Shown one piece after another: positions 2,886-13,019 of a DNA stretch of 20,866 bases. Made by a program: the position numbers and the translations under genes. The stretch's first letter is position 1; each line of letters begins with the position of its first letter. The DNA lies in contig CAZIJQ010000042.1 in NCBI GenBank assembly GCA_964539785.1, forward strand, positions 1 to 20,866, in the 5' to 3' direction. The stretch comes from an uncultured bacterium. Its GTDB lineage: Bacteria; Fidelibacterota; Marinisomatia; Marinisomatales; TCS56. The notes under the pieces are model-generated. The model worked only from the letters and a program-made list of their open reading frames with translations. It was not told the origin of the DNA and made no database searches.

Positions 2886-3008
2886 ATTGATACTATCTTA
2901 GATTTCTCTTCGCTATACTCGAGGGTAACCCTCACTCGATTGGCATTCTGTCGGAGTGTTTCACAGCTCATCGTATTGCTCCGACCTGTGATGCCTGTCC
3001 GATAATTC

Positions 3009-3033
3009 GGTTACATCCCAGAGCAGTGTAACC
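3009..3033 (-). terminator. Possible terminator hairpin at the 3' end of the BMC operon (weak U-tract)
   Basis: ggttaca-(11 nt)-tgtaacc is a 7-bp stem 13 nt downstream of the last BMC-P stop. Only GAAUUAUC follows on the minus strand. Confidence 0.3.
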
Positions 3034-3045
3034 AGCAAGTAGAAA

Positions 3046-3315
3046 TTATTTTAAAGCCACCTCATCCACCACCCCAACAATGATCGACCGGATTGGCCCC
3101 ATAGGGTCGTCCACTACCTGGCGGGCGGAATTGCCTTCGTCGATCACCAGCACCGTTTCACCAGCGCCGCTGTCGGTCCAATCTACCGCAATTAAATAAT
3201 CTCCGGTTGGTTTGCCGTTCAGTCCCAGTTTGTCTACCACCAGTAGCCGGCGGTTCTCATAAAATTTATGATTTATAGTAGAATGGATCGTTCCGCAGAC
3301 GCGCCCCAGAATCAT
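3046..3315 (-). CDS. BMC vertex protein (BMC-P, EutN/CcmL/PduN family)
   Basis: 89 aa with an MILGRVCGTIHST...GAGETVLVIDEGNSARQVV pattern typical of Pfam EutN_CcmL. 4-nt start/stop overlap with the upstream BMC-P gene. Confidence 0.85.
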   Translation of the reverse strand: MILGRVCGTIHSTINHKFYENRRLLVVDKLGLNGKPTGDYLIAVDWTDSGAGETVLVIDEGNSARQVVDDPMGPIRSIIVGVVDEVALK

Positions 3316-3596
3316 TGCTCCTCCCCATCGTAAAGCTGTACATCGTCAACGATGCCCACCACGGCATGATCCACCGGCACGAACCAGGGGTCCATGAGTA
3401 GAGCGGCCTCGCGGCTGCTTTCATAATACACCAGTTCGCCCGGTCCTGCCATGCGGGTGCTATCGGCAGCGATCACCGGTGATTTGACCGGCTGCTGGTA
3501 TTTATCCAGCGGTTGCATCACCAGCATGGGGACACCTTCCAGTCCGTCATAAACCACGGACGGGGTCAGTGTGCCGATAATTCGACCTAACTTCAT
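3312..3596 (-). CDS. BMC vertex protein (BMC-P, EutN/CcmL/PduN family)
   Basis: 94 aa, MKLGRIIGTLTPSVV...AGPGELVYYESSREAALL. 4-nt overlaps with both neighbouring genes, consistent with translational coupling. Confidence 0.85.
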   Translation of the reverse strand: MKLGRIIGTLTPSVVYDGLEGVPMLVMQPLDKYQQPVKSPVIAADSTRMAGPGELVYYESSREAALLMDPWFVPVDHAVVGIVDDVQLYDGEEQ

Positions 3597-4393
3597 TCGC
3601 CCTCCGATAGTTTATCAAGGTTGGCACGACCGAAATAAGTGGTAGCATCCACCTGGGCCGCCATCTCCGGATGCAGGTTGGGGATGATTGTCTCCCGCAG
3701 CCAATTCTCAGTGCTGGTACAGGCCTCTCGAGCAATTCGCACCGCCGCTTCCACTTCGTGCAGATCACCATTAAAAATCGTGAATGCCTTGCCACCGATA
3801 TCATCCGCCAGACGAATTTCAACAATATTGACTTCGGCTCCTTTAACGCCCGCATCGGCTGAACGAAGAGTAGCCGCCACGGTAAAGGTCTCACAAATAC
3901 CCAGTGCCCGCGGTTCACATTTGCGGCGCTGACCCAAGACAGAATCGTGAACCTGATCGTGAACCACCGGCAGGATTACCGAATCCACTACTTGAGTGCC
4001 TCCGACTTGCAATCCCTCAGCATAAGCCTCTTCCACAGCGCCGACGCTGCCGCCGATCAACACTAAATATTTACCGTTGTGCACCGTTCCCGATTTGATC
4101 ACTGCGATTGGCGCCCGCTTGATCATGGCATCGCCGCATAGAATACCAATAGTGACGCTGGAATACTCTATCAGGGCAATGGCCGGGTAGCGGGTGTCAG
4201 ATATCCTGGATCTGGGATCGGGAACTGTGGGCTGGGGATCAGGCTTTGAAGGTTGAGGCTCAATCTTTTCAACAAAATTTTCCAGTCCGTCGTCTTTAGC
4301 TGTTGGTTCTTCCAACACCATTGACTCAGAAGTCTTTTTCTGGGCCGCCTTTTGTCGTCGCAATTCTCCGGGGGTTGGTTTCTTTTCACTCAT
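3593..4393 (-). CDS. Tandem BMC-domain shell protein (BMC-T, PduT-like arrangement) with ~65-aa disordered K/P/E/Q-rich N-terminal extension
   Basis: Two canonical-order BMC domains (AIALIEYSSVTIGILCGDAMIKRAP... and ALGICETFTVAATLRSADAGVKGAEV...). They are preceded by MSEKKPTPGELRRQKAAQKK...PQPSKPDPQPTVPDP, a low-complexity segment. Confidence 0.8.
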   Translation of the reverse strand: MSEKKPTPGELRRQKAAQKKTSESMVLEEPTAKDDGLENFVEKIEPQPSKPDPQPTVPDPRSRISDTRYPAIALIEYSSVTIGILCGDAMIKRAPIAVIKSGTVHNGKYLVLIGGSVGAVEEAYAEGLQVGGTQVVDSVILPVVHDQVHDSVLGQRRKCEPRALGICETFTVAATLRSADAGVKGAEVNIVEIRLADDIGGKAFTIFNGDLHEVEAAVRIAREACTSTENWLRETIIPNLHPEMAAQVDATTYFGRANLDKLSEGE

Positions 4394-4420
4394 TACTAAT
4401 TACCCATTACTATTTACTAA

Positions 4421-5866
4421 TCAAACAATTCTGAAATGATCCACCAGAACGCAGCGCCGTTCCCGGGAAAAACTCAGGGGATTGGTGATGCCTTCGCCGG
4501 TGGGACTGGCAATCGAGAATGAACAGTAGCCTTCGCCTTCGTAACCCAGCCCAGCGAGAGATGGACCATTCTTGACAAAAACACTGCAGTTCATCACTCG
4601 CGCCATTCGACTCAGGTTATCCAGATTACGGGAATGCATCATGGCCGTGTGACCGAAACCGTGTTCCGCTTCCTTGGCCAGATCGATGGCCTGGTTGGCA
4701 TCAGGTACGATCACGAAGGGAATCACCGGCATCATCTGCTCGGTCCATACCAGGGGATGGTTGGCATCCACCGGTGCTATGGCCAGGCGGATGTGCTCAT
4801 CGACCTTAAGACCGATCTTCGCCAGAATTTCCTGAACGTTCTTCCCAATCATGTCCTTGTTCATAACCGCCGGTTGGCGGGGACCACGATTTTCGCTGAA
4901 AATCACCGATTCCAATTCCTTAACCTGGTGCTCTTTCAGCACATAGGCATCGTAGCGCAGCAAGGCCGATAAAAGTTGCGGGGCCACTGCTTCCACAACA
5001 ATAATTTCTTTTTCCAGGATGCAGATCAGGTTATTGTCCATGGAAGCACCCTTAACAATACTGCGGGCTGCCTTTTCAATATCGGCAGTCTCGTCCACCA
5101 CCACCGGGGGATTCCCCGGTCCGGCGCAGACGGCGCGCTTACCGCTGGTCATTGCGGCTTTCACCACCGCAGCGCCTCCAGTTACTACCAGCAGGCGCAC
5201 ACCGGGATGCTGCATCAATTCCTGGGCACTGGCGACGGTGGGTTGAGCGATGGTCGTTACCAGATTGGGTGGTCCGCCAGCGTCAACAATGGCGGCATTC
5301 AGCAATTCAACATTGTAAACCGAAACATTCTTGGCCGTGGGATGGACATTGAAAACTGCTGCATTCCCGGCTGCTACCATCCCAATTGTATTACAGATGA
5401 TAGTGGAAGTAGGGTTGGTGCAAGGCGTAATTGAACCGATCACCCCGTAGGGCGCCAACTCCATCAGCGTTAAACCATGATCACCGGTCTTGGCCCAAGG
5501 TTTGAGTATTTCGGTCCCCGGTGTTTTATCGATCACCAACCGGTTTTTTTCAATCTTGTCAGCTACCCGCCCCAGACCGGTTTCGTCATAGGCCCGTTGG
5601 GCCAGGTCTTCGCTGTGCTCGGTCATCACCCGTCGGATCGAGGCGATAATATCATCCCGCTTGGACAGAGACAGGGCATTTAACTGATCAAAGGCTTTAG
5701 CTGCCGCCGCCACTGCCAGATCGATGGTAGGGAAAATCCCCATTCCACCAGCGGCTACAGTGCTCCCGGATTGCTCCAGTACTCCCGATGCAACAGGTGT
5801 TTGGGTCACCCGCTTCACCAGCCGGGCGGCAATTTGCTCAACCTGTTCCTGGGTTAATTGTGCCAT
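4421..5866 (-). CDS. CoA-acylating aldehyde dehydrogenase (PduP/EutE family) with N-terminal encapsulation-peptide-like helix
   Basis: Aldehyde dehydrogenase fold with the catalytic Cys region NNLICILEKE. Preferred start is the ATG at 5866 (MAQLTQEQVEQIAARLVKRV...), which has AAAGGA 8 nt upstream. The ORF-track start at 5905 would lie inside a hairpin repeat. The N-terminal amphipathic helix plus G/S/T-rich linker is typical of BMC cargo. Confidence 0.85.
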   Translation of the reverse strand: MAQLTQEQVEQIAARLVKRVTQTPVASGVLEQSGSTVAAGGMGIFPTIDLAVAAAAKAFDQLNALSLSKRDDIIASIRRVMTEHSEDLAQRAYDETGLGRVADKIEKNRLVIDKTPGTEILKPWAKTGDHGLTLMELAPYGVIGSITPCTNPTSTIICNTIGMVAAGNAAVFNVHPTAKNVSVYNVELLNAAIVDAGGPPNLVTTIAQPTVASAQELMQHPGVRLLVVTGGAAVVKAAMTSGKRAVCAGPGNPPVVVDETADIEKAARSIVKGASMDNNLICILEKEIIVVEAVAPQLLSALLRYDAYVLKEHQVKELESVIFSENRGPRQPAVMNKDMIGKNVQEILAKIGLKVDEHIRLAIAPVDANHPLVWTEQMMPVIPFVIVPDANQAIDLAKEAEHGFGHTAMMHSRNLDNLSRMARVMNCSVFVKNGPSLAGLGYEGEGYCSFSIASPTGEGITNPLSFSRERRCVLVDHFRIV

Positions 5867-5913
5867 AATATGTCCTTTAGCCAGGGGATTAGTTACCGTG
5901 TACATCCAATCAT

Positions 5914-5981
5914 GTCACCCTGAGCCTGTCGAAGGGTGTCAACATGATTGATCAGCCATGCTTCGACGGGCTCAGCATGAC
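5914..5981. repeat. Inverted pair of 27-nt hairpin repeat units (REP/BIME-like) in the BMC-P/AldDH intergenic gap
   Basis: Unit A1 at 5914-5940 is gtcaccc-TGAGCCTGTCGAA-gggtgtc. Unit A2 at 5955-5981 has the opposite orientation (its reverse complement is gtcatgc-TGAGCCCGTCGAA-gcatggc). The 13-nt loop is conserved; the 7-bp stems differ but remain complementary. Confidence 0.75.
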
Positions 5982-5994
5982 AGACACGCGTCAA

Positions 5995-6294
5995 CTAATC
6001 GTTCACGCCTTTTTTGTAGCGGATTTTTCCGTCTACTTCCCAGTTGTCAACGATGGCCATAACCACAGCATCGCAGGGACGCTTGTCGGTCATTACCGTC
6101 TGCCGGGCGGAACTTCCGCTGGCATAGAGAACCATTTCACCCACTCCTGCCTGGACAGCATCAGCGGCGACAACAAAGCCGCCGCTGGGTTTACCATCCA
6201 TGTCAATATTCTGGAGCAGCAGAAATTTGAGGCCCTCCAAGCTCTGTTCTTTTTGTGTGGCTACCAGGGTACCCACTACTTGTGCCAGAACCAT
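5995..6294 (-). CDS. BMC vertex protein (BMC-P, EutN/CcmL/PduN family)
   Basis: 99 aa, [16 protein letters not shown]...[18 protein letters not shown]. Third BMC-P paralog in the locus. Confidence 0.85.
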
Positions 6295-6305
6295 ATTCCC
6301 GAGAC

Positions 6306-6614
6306 CTAATCCTCGGTCATTTTGGCTTTGGGCTTGTCACCGCGACCGATAGGCATTACCAGGTCCACATTACTGTGGGGACGGGCAATTACATGAACGG
6401 CAACGATTTCGCCTACGCGGGCGGCACCGGCTTTACCGGCATCGCAGGCAGCCTTTACAGCGGCCACATCACCGCGGACGATCGCTGAAACATAACCGCC
6501 ACCGGTCTTTTCATAAGATACTAGCTCGACTTTGGCCGCTTTGACCATGGCGTCGGCGGCTTCCACTACTGCCGGGAAACTGCGCGTTTCGATCATTCCA
6601 AGTGCTTCTGCCAT
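6306..6614 (-). CDS. BMC hexamer shell protein (BMC-H, PduA/EutM/CcmK-like)
   Basis: 102 aa. [56 protein letters not shown] is a near-consensus single BMC domain. It has a short Lys-rich C-terminal tail ([13 protein letters not shown]). Confidence 0.9.
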
Positions 6615-6667
6615 TTTACTTCCTCCAGTGTATTAAGAGTTAATTTGAAAATTCTTTTAAGATCAGT

Positions 6668-6722
6668 GTCATACTGAGCTTGTCGAAGTATGACCGTCAC
6701 CCTTCGACAGGCTCAGGGTAAC
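6668..6722. repeat. Inverted pair of the same 27-nt hairpin repeat units in the BMC-T/BMC-H intergenic gap
   Basis: B1 at 6668-6694 is gtcatac-TGAGCTTGTCGAA-gtatgac, a perfect 7-bp stem. B2 at 6696-6722 has the opposite orientation (reverse complement gttaccc-TGAGCCTGTCGAA-gggtgac). A gtatgac arm remnant lies at 6735-6741. Confidence 0.75.
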
Positions 6723-6746
6723 AGAAGGGCTCCAGTATGACACAAA

Positions 6747-7373
6747 TTATTTTTTATCTTTCTCAACCCCGGTGATTTCTTCAATGCATTTTACGGCGGC
6801 GCGCCAGCCTACATCAATATCCCTTTCGGCTCCGCCCAGATACACACGGCCGAAGCTGCCGAAAGTTCGTACTTCCAAAATATTGATTTCGGCAGCTTTT
6901 TCCGCTTCATTGGCCGCCAAGGCGGCATAAGCAGCGGGCTGGACCTCCATAACGAACATGGTTTCGCCGGGAACAATCATATTACCGTGGCGCATGCGGT
7001 TAATCAACTGGGTCTGGTGATCATCGATGTGGCGAATCACCTGCTGAGAATAAATTTTTGGCTTCCAACGCTTCTCCTCCTTCAAATCCAACGCATCCAG
7101 AATAGCCTGTCCAGCCTGGCGCACATCGGCCTGGGATTCGGAATGAATTTCCAGCATTCCGAACAACCGTTCCACGATCTGCATCCCTGGAGTAACATTA
7201 GTAGATTTCAAGGCGATGTCGGTGATCCGGTTGATTTCGATCCCTGGGGAAATTTCAACATACAATGAAGCCATCCCGGCGATTGGTAAAAAACCCTTAG
7301 CCACTGTGCCGAGAAAGGCGGCGTACTGGGGTTGAAGATTATCCAGAAAACAATAAGCGCGTAAATCGACCAC
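6747..7373 (-). CDS. Tandem BMC-domain shell protein (BMC-T, PduT-like)
   Basis: 208 aa. Two BMC-like halves: [24 protein letters not shown]... and [29 protein letters not shown].... Domain order appears canonical (non-permuted). Assignment rests on the motif pattern only. Confidence 0.7.
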
Positions 7374-7390
7374 TATTCTACTCCTTCAGC

Positions 7391-8800
7391 TTAATTCGAA
7401 ATTGTTGTTTCTTGGGCACCTTTAACGATCCCAATACTGGCGCTGGCACCAATCCGGGTAGCCCCGGCTTCAACCATCTTGCGGGCATCGTCATACGATC
7501 TGATACCACCGGCGGCTTTCACGCCCAATCCCGCTCCTTGGACAACCCGGCTCATGAGAGCCACATCTTCGGCAGTAGCACCACCAGGACCAAAACCGGT
7601 GGACGTTTTAACATAATTAGCGCGAGCTTTTTTTGACAGCTCGCAAGCCCTAACTTTTTCGTCGTCGGTTAACAAAGCTGCTTCGATAATAACTTTACTG
7701 GTGGCGCTGCCGTCTTCGCAGGCCTCACAGACTGATCGGATATCCCGGTAAACTAAGTCATCTTTGCCACTTTTCAGAGCGCCGATATTGATCACCATAT
7801 CGATTTCTTTCGCACCATCGCGGATCGCCTGGCGGGTCTCCATGGCCTTGATCTCCGGTGAATGGGCTCCGGAAGGAAAGCCCACCACGGTGCAGACTTT
7901 CACATCGGAACCGTCCAGTTCTTTGGCTGCTAGCCTCACATAACTGGGACTAATACATACCGTGGCAAAATGGAAGTCCCGAGCTTCACCACAAAGCTTT
8001 TTGATATCGGCATCGGTGGCATCGGGCTTCAAAACGGTGTGATCAATGCAACGGGCAATATCCTCCGGAACGTTTTCGCAGCCGGTACCGTTGTGGTAGC
8101 CGACCCGCTCCACACCAAAATCCATGAATTTGCGTACGGCATCGGGCTGTTGGACCATCTGCTTGCCGCGGATATAATCGGCTTCCAGCGGCTGGGGTAC
8201 GCCAGTGGGCGACAGGGTGATTCCAGCTTTTGCCAAGATTTTCTCGACTTCATCGGTGATTCGTACCAGATCCGATTCGGAGATTCCGGTTTCAACAACC
8301 GAGACCGGTGGTGCCGATTGCGGCGCTGAAAATTCGATGTCAGGTTGCTGTTCGATATCAGTAATCATTTGTACCCGTCGCAAATGCCGCTCGGCGGTAC
8401 ATTCACTGGTAATAAAAGTTTCCACAATTTGTTGCGCCAGTGCGGCACCAATCAGTCCGGCACCCAGTGTCAGAACCCGGGCATCGTTGTGTTCGCGGGC
8501 GTTTTTGGCGGTTGATACATCATAGCACAGAGCTGCCCGAATGCCCAACACCTTGTTGGCGGTCATGGCGGAACCAATTCCGGCCCCATCTACCATTACA
8601 CCAAAATCGGCCTCACCAGCAGCGACTTTGCGGGCTACGGCCAGGGCGAACTCGGGATAATCCACAGCAGCGGTGCCATCGGTGCCACAGTCAATTATCG
8701 TACTACCACAACCGGAAAGAAATTCTTTCAATTGGTTTTTCAAGCCATATCCACCGTGATCGGCGCCAATGGCTATTTTCAAGTTTTTTATGTCTTTCAT
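7391..8800 (-). CDS. Fusion protein: RpiB/LacAB-family sugar-phosphate isomerase (aa 1-150) + deoxyribose-phosphate aldolase DeoC/DERA (aa ~230-469)
   Basis: N-terminal [14 protein letters not shown]...[30 protein letters not shown] aligns residue-by-residue with E. coli RpiB. C-terminal [13 protein letters not shown] and the Schiff-base lysine motif [14 protein letters not shown] are DERA signatures. The two are joined by a Pro-rich linker containing an amphipathic helix. Confidence 0.85.
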
Positions 8801-8825
8801 GATATTTTCAAATTTTAGTTAGCCA

Positions 8826-9773
8826 TTAACCATTTAACAGCAATTTATTCGCGACAAATTCATCCGTAATAAGCGTATTGAAAAATTTACCCTGTAGTCC
8901 GGCGCGGATTGCTGCCAGCTTACGCTGACCACCAGCCACCGCGATTGATCGGGATTTTTTAGCCAGCTCTGTCAGATCTATTCCGATTGTACGCCGGTCC
9001 AGATCGGAAGAACAAATTTTCCCTTTACCATCGATAATCCGTGAACAAATATCGCCCACAGCCCCCCGTTTCAGCAAATCATTAACTTCATTATTTTCAA
9101 AATAATCTGCCCGTACCAGGACTGAATCCATGCCGAAAGAGCCAATGGTGAAAAAGGCTACCTGGGCCGAGCGGGCCAATTGTAGCGTTCGAGCAATATT
9201 TTTATCGGATACAATCGCTGCCTTAACTGCCGGGCTGTCAACGATGGCGGGTAATGGCAGCAGATAAGGAATGGCCCCGCATTTCTCACCAATGGTCTTG
9301 GCTATTTCACTGGCGTGGGTGTCATATTCGGCCCGTGATATACCGCCGTTCAGCTGTACTACCGTCATGTCCTTAAATTTTTTAGCCTGCACCTGGCCTG
9401 CCAAAGCCTGCATGGTGGTACCCCAGGATACACCAAGGGTCAGGCCATCTTCCAGCAGGTCATTCAGCAGTGATACCGCTGCCTGTCCCAGACGGCGCTG
9501 TACCAACCAGTAGTTACCGTCATCCGGAACGACAATGACTTGCTTGAGCTTGTATTTTTTTTGCAGCTGTGCTTCCAGACGCGTACCGGCAGCTTGGGGA
9601 TCTTTGATTTTTATACTGACAATGCCCTGCTGGCGGGCCGCCTGGAGCAGTCGCGAGACGCCGGGTCGGGAGACTGACATTTTGCGGGCAATATCCTGTT
9701 GGCTGAGCCCATGTTCATAATACAGCCGGGCAGCCTCCACCAACTGGGAAATTCGTTCTGAGTCAGTCAACAT
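8826..9773 (-). CDS. SorC/DeoR(Bacillus-type)/CggR family sugar-phosphate-responsive transcriptional regulator
   Basis: 315 aa. N-terminal HTH (LYYEHGLSQQDIARKMSVSRPGVSRLLQAARQQGIV) is followed by a SorC-type sugar-binding domain. It is the first gene of the BMC operon, 25 nt upstream of the RpiB-DERA gene. Confidence 0.85.
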   Translation of the reverse strand: MLTDSERISQLVEAARLYYEHGLSQQDIARKMSVSRPGVSRLLQAARQQGIVSIKIKDPQAAGTRLEAQLQKKYKLKQVIVVPDDGNYWLVQRRLGQAAVSLLNDLLEDGLTLGVSWGTTMQALAGQVQAKKFKDMTVVQLNGGISRAEYDTHASEIAKTIGEKCGAIPYLLPLPAIVDSPAVKAAIVSDKNIARTLQLARSAQVAFFTIGSFGMDSVLVRADYFENNEVNDLLKRGAVGDICSRIIDGKGKICSSDLDRRTIGIDLTELAKKSRSIAVAGGQRKLAAIRAGLQGKFFNTLITDEFVANKLLLNG

Positions 9774-9774
9774 A

Positions 9775-9815
9775 GTTTGAACATATGTTCATTGGGTAGT
9801 ATCATTTGTTCAAAC
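9775..9815. promoter_or_regulatory. Operator-like palindrome TGAACATATGTTCA (9778-9791) plus a third half-site TGTTCAAAC (9807-9815), immediately upstream of the SorC/DeoR start codon
   Basis: Perfect 14-bp palindrome beginning 5 nt upstream of the regulator ATG (9773, minus strand). The outer 9-mers gtttgaaca (9775-9783) and tgttcaaac (9807-9815) are exact inverted repeats. Confidence 0.4.
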
Positions 9816-9895
9816 CTACCGGATTATTTTGGGTTTTGCAAGGAAAATTTACACAGTCGTTTTTATCGATGGTAATTTGTGGTTATAACACTGTT

Positions 9896-9922
9896 GGCAT
9901 GGTTCGACAGGCTCACTATGAC
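9896..9922. repeat. Single copy of the same hairpin repeat unit in the leader region upstream of the SorC/DeoR gene
   Basis: ggcatgg-TTCGACAGGCTCA-ctatgac. Its reverse complement is gtcatag-TGAGCCTGTCGAA-ccatgcc. Same loop as the other copies; the stem has 5 Watson-Crick pairs plus 1 G-U. Confidence 0.65.
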
Positions 9923-10114
9923 ATCTCCCCTGTCATTCCGAAGGAAGGCATGCCTGCCGTAGATCCTGATTTATCAGGACGCAGGCAGGTACGACTGAGT
10001 AATCTACTTTGTCTGGAGTAAGTTCATTGTAGATTTCTCATCCCGATGTATCGGTATTCGAAATGACAAATATGGAAACTGTTAAAACGGTTAACGTGTA
10101 TTTACCGATGGTTA

Positions 10115-10141
10115 CCCACAACTGAAGTTGTGGGCTTTTTG
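10115..10141 (+). terminator. Canonical intrinsic terminator on the plus strand with no annotated plus-strand gene upstream
   Basis: cccacaac-TGAA-gttgtggg is a perfect 8-bp GC-rich stem with a 4-nt loop, followed by CTTTTTG. The reverse orientation has no U-tract. Confidence 0.6.
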
Positions 10142-10278
10142 CTCTGATCTGCAAATTGTACAATTGATTGTGTCAAATACATTTGGGACTGCACTTGAAT
10201 GATATCATCATGCCCATAGTTTTAACTGTGGGTCATTTAATTACTACACACCCCAACCATTTCAATGGTTTACTGCTG

Positions 10279-11622
10279 TTAAACCAAATTTTTGACCCGA
10301 TCCACCAGAGCCTGGGCTTGGGCCTGATCCGGGGCTTCAGCATAGATGCGCATGATCGGTTCAGTGTTGGATTTACGCAGATGAACCCAGCTGTCTTTCC
10401 AGGTGAACTTAACGCCATCGATTGTATTGACATCAGCCCGGGAAAATTCCCGCCGCACAGCAGCCAGGGATTGATCGACATCCACACCTTCCAGGCTGAC
10501 CTTATCTTTCACCATCACAAATTGCGGTAACGTTGCCACAATAGCACTTAGCGGTTTCATGGATTGTGCCATGCGATTCAGCACCATGGCGGCTCCCACC
10601 AGCGAATCGCGACACAGATGAGCGGCCATCAAAATGACACCGCCGTTGCCCTCACCGCCCAGTGGGGCATCCAGGGTTTGCATCAACTGAACCACATTAA
10701 TTTCACCTACGGCCGAGCGAACAACTTTGGTACCATATCGGTCAGCCAGCTTGTCTAATGCCATAGTGGTGGACAGATTCACTACAATTGGTTCAGGTTT
10801 ACCAGTGGTTTTCCAGTAGCCATCCACGGCCAGAACCAGAGTGTTTTCCTCACCCAGCGGCATCCCCTTTTCTGATACAATCGCTAAACGGTCCGCATCG
10901 GGATCCACTGCAAAACCGGCGTCGGATCCAGTTTGGGTCACGACATCACCCAAGTCCCGCAGATTTTCCGGTAGTGGCTCCGTACCCCGCAAAAATTTCC
11001 CAGATGGTTCGCAATACAGCGGTACCACTTCACAGTTCAGCGCCCTCAACATAGCTGGCAGAGCTTCGGCACCGGCGCCATTAACAGCATCGATGGCAAT
11101 TTTAAATTTTCGCTGTTTAATAGCCGCCACATCGATACAATCCAATGACAGAATGTGGTCTATGTGTTTTTCAATTGCGTCTTTCTGGGTAGTGCGCTGT
11201 CCGGCTTCTGCGATATGAATTGTATCGCAACCGGCATCTACATGATCGAACAATTGTCGACATTCGTCCGGCAGAAAAAAAGTGCCATCGACCCGGACAA
11301 ATTTCAAGCCGTTCCACTCGATAGGATTATGGCTGGCGGTCACAATGATTCCGCCTACTGCAGTGGATTGCTCGACAACAAACTGGACCGTGGGTGTTGG
11401 GACGATTCCGCAATCGACTACATCTCTCCCGAAGGCAGTTAATTCTTCGGCAATGGCGTTTGTGAGCGTTACGCCAGAAGGACGGCTGTCGCGCCCCAGC
11501 ACAATTTCGCCAAAAGGCAACATATCATTGACAGCACGAGCATAAACCTGGACAATGGCAGGTGTCAAGTGACTGGCGACCAATCCCCTAACACCGGAAA
11601 TACTGCGAATCAACATTGACAA
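10279..11622 (-). CDS. alpha-D-phosphohexomutase superfamily enzyme (PGM/PMM family); candidate phosphopentomutase, GlmM not excluded
   Basis: 447 aa. Phosphoserine loop GIIVTASHNP, metal-binding loop FAVDPDADR, sugar loop GEENTL and phosphate-binding RKSNTEP are all present. Immediately upstream of the SPU-type BMC operon. Confidence 0.8.
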   Translation of the reverse strand: MSMLIRSISGVRGLVASHLTPAIVQVYARAVNDMLPFGEIVLGRDSRPSGVTLTNAIAEELTAFGRDVVDCGIVPTPTVQFVVEQSTAVGGIIVTASHNPIEWNGLKFVRVDGTFFLPDECRQLFDHVDAGCDTIHIAEAGQRTTQKDAIEKHIDHILSLDCIDVAAIKQRKFKIAIDAVNGAGAEALPAMLRALNCEVVPLYCEPSGKFLRGTEPLPENLRDLGDVVTQTGSDAGFAVDPDADRLAIVSEKGMPLGEENTLVLAVDGYWKTTGKPEPIVVNLSTTMALDKLADRYGTKVVRSAVGEINVVQLMQTLDAPLGGEGNGGVILMAAHLCRDSLVGAAMVLNRMAQSMKPLSAIVATLPQFVMVKDKVSLEGVDVDQSLAAVRREFSRADVNTIDGVKFTWKDSWVHLRKSNTEPIMRIYAEAPDQAQAQALVDRVKNLV

Positions 11623-11671: not shown

Positions 11672-11712
11672 AAAAAAAGGTCCAGGAATTATCCCGGACC
11701 TTTTCTGCTTTT
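11672..11712 (-). terminator. Intrinsic terminator downstream of rpsU (bidirectional in appearance)
   Basis: aaaaaaa-ggtccagg-aattat-cccggacc-ttttctgctttt. On the minus strand the stem is followed by UUUUUUU. It lies 15 nt after the rpsU stop. Confidence 0.6.
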
Positions 11713-12209: not shown

Positions 12210-13019
12210 ATGAATAAATATCAAAACATAGCCCTCTGGCTTATTGCCATCGTAATTACGGTGTCTTCCGCTGTCTACCAGAAAACAACCGGTCCTACTT
12301 ACCCAATCAAAGGGGAGGTACAGATCAACGATACGACTATCAGCTATAAGCTTTTACGGTCTCATAATACTGGAATTGACGCCCGGATAATCATTCTGGT
12401 TGATAATGAAACTATTACCGGTACCTTTGATTTTCGACGATTTCGAAGTAACGATGACTGGACTACCAGCGTGATGGAACAGAACGAAGGATCCTTGGTT
12501 GTTACATTACCACACCAGCCCCCGGCCGGAAAAATCATGTACCGTCTCTATTTGATCGATGCTGATGGTATTCGCCATGAACTTCACCGGGAACCGGTTT
12601 TGATCCGATTCAAAGGAGCGGTTCCGGCTTATATCCTGATTCCACATATATTCTTCATGTTTTTTGCAATGTTGATTTCAAACAGGAGTGGTTTACAGGC
12701 TCTTGTTCGCGGCGAAAGTCTATACAAATATGCCCTTTGGACAGCGGGACTGTTACTGGCCGGTGGATTAATCTTGGGACCGGTTGTACAGAAATTTGCC
12801 TTTGGTGCTTTCTGGACCGGTTGGCCCTGGGGGCACGACTTGACAGATAACAAAACAATTGTCGCATTTTTGGCTTGGGGGTTTGCAATTTGGAAGAACC
12901 GGGGTAATAGACACAATCCTGGGTGGGTGCTGGCAGCCAGCATTATCCTGTTTATGGTTTACATGATTCCACACAGTGTTTTAGGTTCGGAACTGGATTT
13001 CACCGGCATGGAGCAGTAA
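12210..13019 (+). CDS. Hypothetical integral membrane protein (N-terminal TM anchor, ~130-aa extracytoplasmic domain, ~4 C-terminal TM helices)
   Basis: 269-aa ORF with hydrophobic segments (IALWLIAIVITVSSAVY; ILIPHIFFMFFAMLI; LWTAGLLLAGGLILGPVV; IVAFLAWGFAIW; VLAASIILFMVYMI). No recognisable motif. Confidence 0.5.
   Translation: MNKYQNIALWLIAIVITVSSAVYQKTTGPTYPIKGEVQINDTTISYKLLRSHNTGIDARIIILVDNETITGTFDFRRFRSNDDWTTSVMEQNEGSLVVTLPHQPPAGKIMYRLYLIDADGIRHELHREPVLIRFKGAVPAYILIPHIFFMFFAMLISNRSGLQALVRGESLYKYALWTAGLLLAGGLILGPVVQKFAFGAFWTGWPWGHDLTDNKTIVAFLAWGFAIWKNRGNRHNPGWVLAASIILFMVYMIPHSVLGSELDFTGMEQ

Follow-up and report, generated by a model that had tools for sequence, protein, structure and literature searches.

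A predicted SPU3-like microcompartment operon with a DeoR-type operator in an uncultured marine Marinimicrobia bacterium

Bacterial microcompartment (BMC) loci of the sugar-phosphate-utilising (SPU) class were defined by Axen 2014 on the basis of Atribacteria, Gemmatimonadetes and Marinimicrobia single-cell genomes, and the Marinimicrobia locus of that study already carried a fused aldolase-isomerase and no PduL (PMC4207490). In the catalogue of Sutter 2021, SPU loci number more than 280, are spread over 26 phyla and fall into seven subtypes, with a CcmP-like BMC-Tdp shell protein in SPU2 and SPU3. In a curated set of 206 loci, Dwyer, Sutter and Kerfeld 2024 found a chimera of ribose-5-phosphate isomerase (RPI) and deoxyribose-5-phosphate aldolase (DERA) in 20 SPU3 loci, noted aspartate at the position of Cys66 in every SPU RPI, and listed PduS for all SPU subtypes except SPU6, with SPU5 loci lacking an RPI; their purified SPU6 DERA was active on deoxyribose-5-phosphate (dR5P), the SPU6 RPI had negligible activity on ribose-5-phosphate, and the two proteins form a complex (PMC11585597). 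A 2025 preprint further reports that SPU-type shells of the archaeal Hodarchaeales self-assemble and recruit cargo in a peptide-dependent manner (PMC12747264). Here we analyse a locus of this class in an uncultured marine member of the Marinimicrobia (Neomarinimicrobiota), located on contig CAZIJQ010000042.1 of assembly GCA_964539785.1; "the window" denotes the whole stretch of DNA that was analysed, 20,866 nt in length. A first-pass annotation of the window had described the class as purely bioinformatic, with untested physiology and no experimentally characterised member, a statement that PMC11585597 and PMC12747264 have outdated.

Our analysis leads us to assign the region 3046-9841 on the minus strand, with a probability of roughly 75%, to a single predicted nine-gene SPU microcompartment operon that matches SPU3, and the operon most likely degrades deoxyribose phosphate, the sugar of DNA. 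SPU loci rank with the most widespread metabolosomes, but a native host has yet to be studied. Because Marinimicrobia are abundant in the dark and the low-oxygen ocean, an organelle of this kind, burning the deoxyribose of detrital DNA, would matter for the recycling of carbon and phosphorus in the sea. The system itself is not new, its architecture having been published for the Marinimicrobia phylum; what is added to the SPU literature is a DeoR-type regulator and operator pair, an eight-gene cassette kept across many phyla, and a corrected start for the dehydrogenase gene.

Comparison of the locus with SPU3 and SPU6

Ten intact minus-strand open reading frames (ORFs) span positions 3046-11622, as first annotated, and their earlier family assignments hold, since all ten pass the thresholds of their families when compared with Pfam profiles, NCBIfam profiles and solved structures (Table 1). 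Nine of these genes form the operon, with intergenic gaps of 25, 17, 132, 11, 89 and 27 nt in operon order followed by two ATGA overlaps, each neighbouring pair among the last three genes sharing 4 nt. One BMC-H, two BMC-T and three BMC-P genes are packed into 4.3 kb of a single strand, the BMC-P genes constituting a paralogue triplet of three PF03319 members. Together with this shell cluster we find a DERA, the signature enzyme found in no BMC class but SPU, with its catalytic Asp/Lys/Lys residues, an acylating aldehyde dehydrogenase, an RpiB-like domain with a Cys-to-Asp change and, as judged from sequence and a structural model, putative encapsulation peptides on both core enzymes (a dehydrogenase helix and a helix in the fusion linker). 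Diol dehydratase, ethanolamine ammonia-lyase, glycyl-radical enzyme and class II aldolase are all absent across the 20.9-kb window, and its remaining genes include no signature enzyme of another microcompartment type. The earlier proposal that the locus belongs to the SPU class and not to the PDU, EUT, GRM or PVM types is thus supported.

Within the class, the locus corresponds to SPU3 on published gene-content criteria, as distinct from the shell-clade hidden Markov models and locus clustering of the catalogue (BMC Caller). As in SPU3, the RPI is N-terminal in the RPI-DERA chimera, a helix lies in the linker, Cys66 is replaced by Asp and the dehydrogenase has an N-terminal encapsulation peptide, while the shell comprises a CcmP- or CsoS1D-like BMC-Tdp, at least one BMC-Ts and a BMC-P triplet. 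PduL is likewise lacking, and a search of the window for a phosphotransacylase (PTAC), including PF06130, found none. Unlike SPU3, the window lacks a PduS homologue, and neither a triosephosphate isomerase nor a class II aldolase is encoded in it. The comparison with SPU6 of Chloroflexi bacterium GWB2_54_36 is more distant: the same core chemistry has been proposed there, the DERA triad is kept and the RPI lacks its catalytic Cys, but RPI and DERA are separate proteins that form a complex, whereas here they are covalently fused. SPU6 also differs from the window in the C-terminal position of its dehydrogenase encapsulation peptide, in a Tdp of a different clade and in a GntR/UTRA regulator.

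Core enzymes and the predicted pathway

The fusion protein is made up of an RpiB-like domain (residues 1-151), a lone helix (175-191) flanked by disorder and a DERA barrel (250-465), a layout taken from an AlphaFold2 model with a mean pLDDT of 69.8 that was built on a shallow alignment and has low confidence in the segments flanking the helix. In this model the linker helix is a candidate encapsulation helix. The DERA part matches DeoC PF01791 over residues 251-459 (71.9 bits) and scores 279.6 on TIGR00126 against a cut-off of 117.3. Alignment places D334, K398 and K428 at E. coli D102, K167 and K201, and all three are invariant in 121 fusion proteins; a catalytically dead DERA lacking its Schiff-base lysine, raised earlier as a possible objection, is therefore not what the alignment gives.

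The dehydrogenase aligns with R. palustris PduP 5jfl at E 5.5e-127, its catalytic Cys included (DNNLICILEKE versus PduP DNNLPCVAEKE). Reading from the upstream ATG at 5905, as the first-pass annotation had done, would give a protein of 494 aa. Several observations argue for a start at 5866 instead: AAGGA is located 6 nt ahead of the 5866 ATG, one public gene call takes the 481-aa protein, and homologues from many phyla begin with M-x-x-L-T-x-x-Q-V-x-x-I-A directly at the start Met. The 5905 start is rejected because homologues start at this conserved helix and a hairpin at 5909..5985 abuts the upstream ATG; translation most likely begins at 5866. From that Met, the protein opens with the helix MAQLTQEQVEQIAARLVKRV, which has the highest hydrophobic moment of the entire protein and is followed by a low-complexity linker. 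To judge by its sequence and its conservation as an amphipathic helix across phyla, it is a typical encapsulation peptide, in agreement with the initial description of an encapsulation-like helix. PduP/EutE-type dehydrogenases likewise keep the catalytic Cys and an N-terminal amphipathic targeting helix followed by a linker; in contrast to them, the presumed substrate here is acetaldehyde derived from DERA, and no partner PTAC or alcohol dehydrogenase is encoded.

Based on these features, we propose that the operon builds a shell in which one BMC-H is combined with a PduT-like BMC-Ts devoid of an Fe-S ligand, with a CcmP-like gated BMC-Tdp and with three BMC-P proteins, and that cargo would be recruited to it by the amphipathic helices at the dehydrogenase N-terminus and in the fusion linker. 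Entering through the BMC-H or the Tdp pore, dR5P would be split inside the shell by DERA to yield glyceraldehyde-3-phosphate plus acetaldehyde, and the dehydrogenase, also inside, would convert acetaldehyde, coenzyme A (CoA) and NAD+ to acetyl-CoA and NADH. This is the route suggested when the window was first annotated, and it matches the published model. Because no phosphotransacylase, alcohol dehydrogenase or PduS is encoded, CoA and acetyl-CoA as well as NAD+ and NADH would have to pass across the shell, for which the large gated Tdp pore is a plausible route. Encapsulation, the metabolites that cross the shell, the inducer and the physiological source of dR5P are parts of this scheme that we infer.

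The RpiB-like domain matches LacAB_rpiB PF02502 over residues 9-146 (165.2 bits) and passes TIGR01120 narrowly (145.5 versus 138.65). In the fusion, E. coli RpiB Cys66 is replaced by Asp71 and Thr68 by Ala73, and both replacements are nearly invariant among the 121 fusion proteins, the base being Asp in 119. Six other residues of the site, Asp14, His15, His104, Asn105, Arg138 and Arg142, are invariant, and this pattern of kept residues and near-invariant replacements suggests selection on a binding site and not decay. The domain thus has no isomerase base and probably acts as a partner or scaffold of DERA, not as a ribose-5-phosphate isomerase, with the invariant residues suggesting something more than a passive scaffold.

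The same residues lend some weight to a rival in which the organelle is the same and its chemistry another. Here the RpiB-like domain would be active, with Asp71 as base in the manner of other RpiB/LacAB relatives, or would serve as a module for furanose ring opening or substrate delivery, and the compartment would process another or an isomerised sugar phosphate besides dR5P or instead of it. We regard this as unlikely. Lacking a C2 hydroxyl, dR5P cannot undergo aldose-ketose isomerisation, and the DeoR-type operator, together with nucleoside-catabolic genes near related loci, points to deoxyribose. Further counter-evidence comes from SPU6, whose RPI has the same Cys-to-Asp change and negligible ribose-5-phosphate isomerase activity, and from SPU5, whose loci have no RPI at all; on the other side, the same study states that RPIs can have broad specificity, and ribose-5-phosphate was the sole substrate assayed (PMC11585597).

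A more speculative idea, which we rate slightly lower again, is that the RpiB-like domain is a dedicated sugar-phosphate module and that the operon repressor senses deoxyribose phosphate without a covalent lysine. Such a module could bind furanose dR5P, open the ring and pass the open-chain aldehyde to DERA, or could gate entry into the shell. Ring opening comes into consideration because the phosphate-binding arginines and the ring-opening His and Asn are kept in 121 of 121 fusion proteins while the proton-transfer pair of Cys and Thr has become Asp and Ala. If true, the RpiB fold would gain a new catalytic or chaperone role, and the most widespread uncharacterised metabolosome would have a directly testable inducer.

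Two side observations concern the fusion. Around linker residues 205-220 (window ~8140-8190), 79 of the 121 fusion proteins carry a C-x-C-G-x-C motif (DMVCxCGVC) that could be a metal or redox site; it is lost in the other 42, including the clade of the window. In eight loci (e.g. L070 9866-10453), the RpiB-like protein is encoded by a separate gene that overlaps the DERA gene, and the split RpiB-like proteins bear an N-terminal amphipathic helix of their own (MPSESEVREVVRRVV...); these separate genes are split versions of the fusion.

Regulator, operator and promoter

The first gene of the operon encodes a regulator whose top NCBIfam match is Bacillus DeoR (NF053881). It can be aligned with B. 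subtilis DeoR 8r7y from end to end (E 1.7e-72), and its Arg36 and Arg41 correspond to the DNA-contacting residues R34 and R39 of DeoR. Immediately ahead of this gene lies a putative operator with two boxes: box 1 is TTGAACAAATG (9803-9813), and box 2, at 9778-9791, is a perfect palindrome, TGAACATATGTTCA, whose end lies 4 nt ahead of the regulator ATG and which accounts for the sole perfect TGAACANNTGTTCA in the window. A 9-mer, TTGAACAAA, and a 12-mer, ACATATGTTCAA, of this operator recur in that of B. subtilis DeoR, ATTGAACAAAATTTCAATTACCAATTTACATATGTTCAA (PMC11229326). Across seven Marinimicrobia loci, the boxes TTGAACA-N-ATG and TGAACA-NN-TGTTCA are invariant, while the intergenic DNA around them averages 66% column identity, a pattern of sequence conservation that indicates purifying selection on the operator.

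A putative promoter overlaps box 1 with its -10 element, and aligned homologues have CTTGACA, a 17-nt spacer and TAACTT in the same place. From the position of promoter and operator we take the regulator gene to be where the operon begins. The regulator probably is a DeoR-like repressor that has the same DNA specificity as DeoR and binds a deoxyribose-phosphate effector non-covalently. We propose that a SorC-family tetramer would bind the two palindromic boxes, about 21 bp apart and covering the -10 region and the 5' leader, and so repress its own operon until a deoxyribose-derived sugar phosphate, most likely non-covalently bound dR5P, lifts the repression. The near-identity of the operator to that of the B. 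subtilis system makes the SPU inducer testable, and the conserved operator strengthens the analogy with B. subtilis DeoR that had been drawn at the outset. Both systems have the SorC-family architecture, two operator boxes about two helical turns apart and a DERA among their targets, which in B. subtilis are dra-nupC-pdp. They differ in that the B. subtilis boxes lie at -60 to -21 and those of the window over the -10 region and leader, in that the regulator gene here comes first in the operon that is presumably under its control, and in that the enzymes under B. subtilis DeoR are free in the cytosol whereas those of the window are predicted cargo of a microcompartment. SorC and DeoR are not mentioned by Dwyer 2024 (PMC11585597).

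Several findings weigh against a DeoR-controlled, deoxyribose-degrading SPU operon as we describe it. The regulator scores 354.9 bits on NF053881, below the DeoR equivalog cut-off of 420, and the position of DeoR Lys141 is occupied by Asn142, the QLKGG of DeoR reading QLNGG in the window and in six homologues. This lysine was reportedly identified by Skerlova in 2014 as the residue of B. subtilis DeoR that forms a covalent Schiff base with dR5P. Without a PTAC, an alcohol dehydrogenase or PduS, cofactor recycling is left unexplained, and the window lacks a nucleoside phosphorylase, a DeoB-type phosphopentomutase and a nucleoside transporter. We found no canonical terminator after the last operon gene. 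In addition, the sugar-phosphate-binding residues kept invariant in the RpiB-like domain argue that it may perform chemistry outside the model.

In view of the sub-cut-off DeoR score and the missing covalent lysine, we treat a deoxyribose phosphate as a probable effector. Covalent binding of dR5P has been described for B. subtilis DeoR (PMC11229326), and Lys141 may be specific to Bacillus DeoR as far as regulator alignments indicate. Loss of this lysine was considered as a trait peculiar to loci with a DeoR-type operator and rejected, two Chloroflexi SorC regulators beside SPU loci having Asn at the same position. Other-phylum SPU3-like cassettes follow different regulators, namely a small winged-helix HTH_34 protein in five loci (e.g. 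L008 9574-9960) and, in four further cassettes, a family that is GntR-like by eye. From these gene neighbourhoods it appears that regulation has been swapped repeatedly while the cassette stayed constant.

Shell, relatives and neighbouring genes

All shell ORFs passed the BMC or EutN profile thresholds, the BMC-Tdp barely (24.8 bits on PF00936, cut-off 24.5). Dismissing this 208-aa protein as a false shell gene on account of its weak score is ruled out by its matches to CcmP: it aligns with the CcmP structures 5lsr/4ht5 at E 1.7e-80, also matches HO-5816 and CsoS1D, and scores 328.7 bits on the NCBIfam CcmP model, just under the equivalog cut-off of 340. PF27545 CsoS1D_N is precomputed for an identical protein, and the pore Glu-Arg pair lines up as IVERLFG with CcmP FIERLYG. 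CcmP and Haliangium ochraceum BMC-T3 (HO-5816, E 3.2e-71) share the permuted tandem BMC fold; CcmP belongs to a carboxysome context, whereas the BMC-Tdp of the window sits in a catabolic metabolosome. The BMC-H protein resembles EutM and CcmO of NCBIfam.

The two tandem-domain BMC-T proteins noted at first are both present but differ in kind, one being a Tdp and the other a Ts. The BMC-Ts resembles PduT (3pac/3n79, E 4.4e-33) and lacks the PduT pore cysteine, with "tvHnGk" opposite "tiCpGk" of PduT; this cysteine we take to be the ligand of a 4Fe-4S cluster. Its N-terminal extension of 70 residues is rich in Pro, Lys and Glu and probably disordered. A pentamer of the Hodarchaeales SPU-type shell carries DNA-binding Lys/Arg-rich tails (PMC12747264), and by analogy the extension might play a similar role.

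Table 1. Features of the locus, in order along the minus strand from the mutase gene to the end of the operon.
Feature	Position	Strand	Basis
PGM/PMM-family mutase, 447 aa, PGM_PMM domains I-IV	10279..11622	-	Pfam
Putative promoter (-35 TTGCAA 9836-9841, 17-nt spacer, -10 TAGGTT 9813-9818)	9813..9841	-	
Putative DeoR-type operator, 39 bp, TTTGAACAAATGATACTACCCAATGAACATATGTTCAAA	9776..9814	-	likeness to B. subtilis DeoR operator
SorC/DeoR-subfamily repressor, 315 aa	8826..9773	-	helix-turn-helix (HTH) and PF04198 Sugar-bind, 246.9 bits
RpiB-like-DERA fusion, 469 aa	7391..8800	-	Pfam, NCBIfam, solved structures, AlphaFold2 model
BMC-Tdp, CcmP-like permuted tandem-domain trimer, 208 aa, GTG start	6747..7373	-	structure and profile matches
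REP-like double-repeat hairpin, Tdp/BMC-H gap	6666..6743	-	two inverted copies, -38.8 kcal/mol, z -3.64
BMC-H hexamer shell protein, 102 aa, preceded by GGAGGA ribosome-binding site	6306..6614	-	PF00936, 99.7 bits
BMC-P pentamer 1, 99 aa, CcmL-like	5995..6294	-	PF03319 EutN_CcmL, 100.3 bits; CcmL model, 103.7 bits
Second REP-like double-repeat hairpin, BMC-P1/dehydrogenase gap	5909..5985	-	-40.9 kcal/mol, z -4.02
CoA-acylating aldehyde dehydrogenase, 481 aa from Met14	4421..5866	-	Aldedh PF00171; PRK15398, 645.9 bits versus 403
BMC-Ts, PduT-like tandem-domain trimer, 266 aa	3593..4393	-	two PF00936 stretches
BMC-P pentamer 2, 94 aa, 4-nt overlap with Ts gene	3312..3596	-	PF03319, 60.3 bits
BMC-P pentamer 3, 89 aa, final operon gene	3046..3315	-	PF03319, 71.0 bits

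Both domains are present in each of the 120 best matches to the fusion protein; the named ones among them are from Candidatus Marinimicrobia, Neomarinimicrobiota or FCB-group bacteria. With one genome taken per species, a relative is encoded in 595 stretches, and 80 of these loci made up our synteny survey. In 24 of the 80, the eight genes fusion-Tdp-H-P-dehydrogenase-Ts-P-P are colinear, and 15 more contigs keep the same order for whichever cassette genes they contain. The 24 complete loci belong to Neomarinimicrobiota, Planctomycetota, Verrucomicrobiota, Lentisphaerae, Krumholzibacteriota, Gammaproteobacteria (Woeseiaceae), Acidobacteriota, Acidimicrobiia and Chloroflexota; the shell proteins encoded in these lineages are as much as 78-86% identical to those of the window. 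The compactness of this eight-gene cassette makes it a good candidate for heterologous reconstitution.

Homologues of pyrimidine-nucleoside phosphorylase and cytidine deaminase lie within a few kb of the cassette in five loci of other phyla, downstream on the same strand in three (L022 10787-13323, L019 16391-19038 and L010 18640-20459) and on the opposite strand in two (L071 and L059). Pfam confirmed the pair in L022, and in both L022 and L019 it also confirmed a purine-nucleoside phosphorylase. That the substrate comes from deoxynucleoside catabolism thus has independent support from these neighbours. As a separate observation, extra genes stand between BMC-P1 and the dehydrogenase in two loci: the insert of L021 (12712-13548) is a triosephosphate isomerase with an N-terminal extension like a targeting helix, and that of L014 (12630-13400) is a 256-aa protein without a Pfam match.

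The identity of shell proteins across phyla and the base composition of the cluster fit horizontal spread of the cassette: G+C is 48-54% over the microcompartment cluster (3001-11000; mutase 48%) compared to 40-46% in most flanking 1-kb bins. This contrast, along with the insertion of REP-like repeats in intergenic gaps, could be taken to mean that the cluster was acquired horizontally and is now a relic from which no organelle is built. Such an outcome is very improbable given that all nine ORFs are intact and retain their catalytic residues, that the operator appears to be under purifying selection, and that different phyla have kept both the gene order and the sequences, identity of the shell proteins reaching 86%. 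Moreover, a public assembly collection has the identical fusion protein indexed in 46 blocks; 24 contigs carrying it were read, and at the two sites compared the gene neighbourhood is the same as in the window.

The REP-like repeat, with core CTGAGCCTGTCGAAG, occurs in five copies (within 5920-5975, 6674-6716 and 9902-9916), all of them intergenic and in or beside the operon; five matches arose in 0 of 100 shuffles, and none of 200 shuffles folded as well as the hairpin in the Tdp/BMC-H gap. The same repeat occupies other gaps in relatives L002, L004, L005, L083 and L011. Since gap placement differs among relatives, we reject the hairpins as conserved regulatory elements; judging by this distribution they look like mobile intergenic repeats and not a fixed feature, and they may influence how stable the mRNA is or how strongly shell genes are expressed relative to cargo genes.

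The mutase gene, described at first as directly upstream, is indeed the neighbouring gene but lies 505 nt away from the regulator across a gap with hairpins, outside the operator-controlled promoter, and has no DeoR box upstream of it. The two hairpins that follow it are oriented for the plus strand. It had been suggested that this enzyme might supply dR5P from deoxyribose-1-phosphate, in which case it would be a functional part of the system, a phosphopentomutase acting on deoxyribose-1-phosphate from a nucleoside phosphorylase. PGM-family phosphopentomutases do exist (PDB 9ix8), loci with nucleoside phosphorylases would require such a step, and the order S21-mutase-regulator-cassette is shared by the window, L083 (fusion 82% identical) and L001 (65%). 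The enzyme itself points elsewhere, passing the archaeal-type phosphoglucosamine mutase (GlmM) model TIGR03990 with 475.3 bits against a cut-off of 439 and being equally near to phosphopentomutase 9ix8 (2e-41) and to PMM/PGM (3e-41), far less near than to generic phospho-sugar mutases, of which 1wqa is the closest solved structure (2e-72). Adjacency is also confined to the closest clade (identical contigs, L001 and L081-L083), the mutase being absent beside the cassette in L002-L005 as well as in every other phylum. We therefore find a dR5P-producing role for the mutase unsupported by the evidence here, and its membership of the system improbable. Separately, the gap between S21 and mutase contains a hairpin with 13-bp arms flanked by A and T runs (11675-11704), which looks like a bidirectional terminator and would separate the two genes.

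Other genes of the window encode an M14 carboxypeptidase with a type IX secretion tail, ribosomal protein S21, a CitMHS transporter, an ABC-F protein, a MiaB-like enzyme, an HTH protein and a CHASE2 cyclase. Searching the whole window against Rfam at the gathering threshold gave no match, and a permissive search of 5850-6800 returned only sub-threshold matches to an unrelated small-RNA model (20-25 bits versus 97), so that we assign no riboswitch or known RNA to the gaps; no tRNA genes were found. A consensus scan for sigma-70 promoters and terminators was of little use, with 4 terminator-like sites compared to 11 expected.

Beyond the end of the operon, two plus-strand ORFs (2195-2761 and 2778-2885) converge on it. 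The latter, MAKGRDKQKVTEKKKAGKSLKEKRKAKKEKTTYKD, is rich in lysine and has 35 codons and a strong AGGAGG ribosome-binding site; in L083, ORFs of equal length are called behind the cassette and once more further along. The former, of 188 aa, and a plus-strand ORF of 269 aa at 12210-13019 have no Pfam match, and the 269-aa ORF is kept beside the CitMHS transporter in L083.

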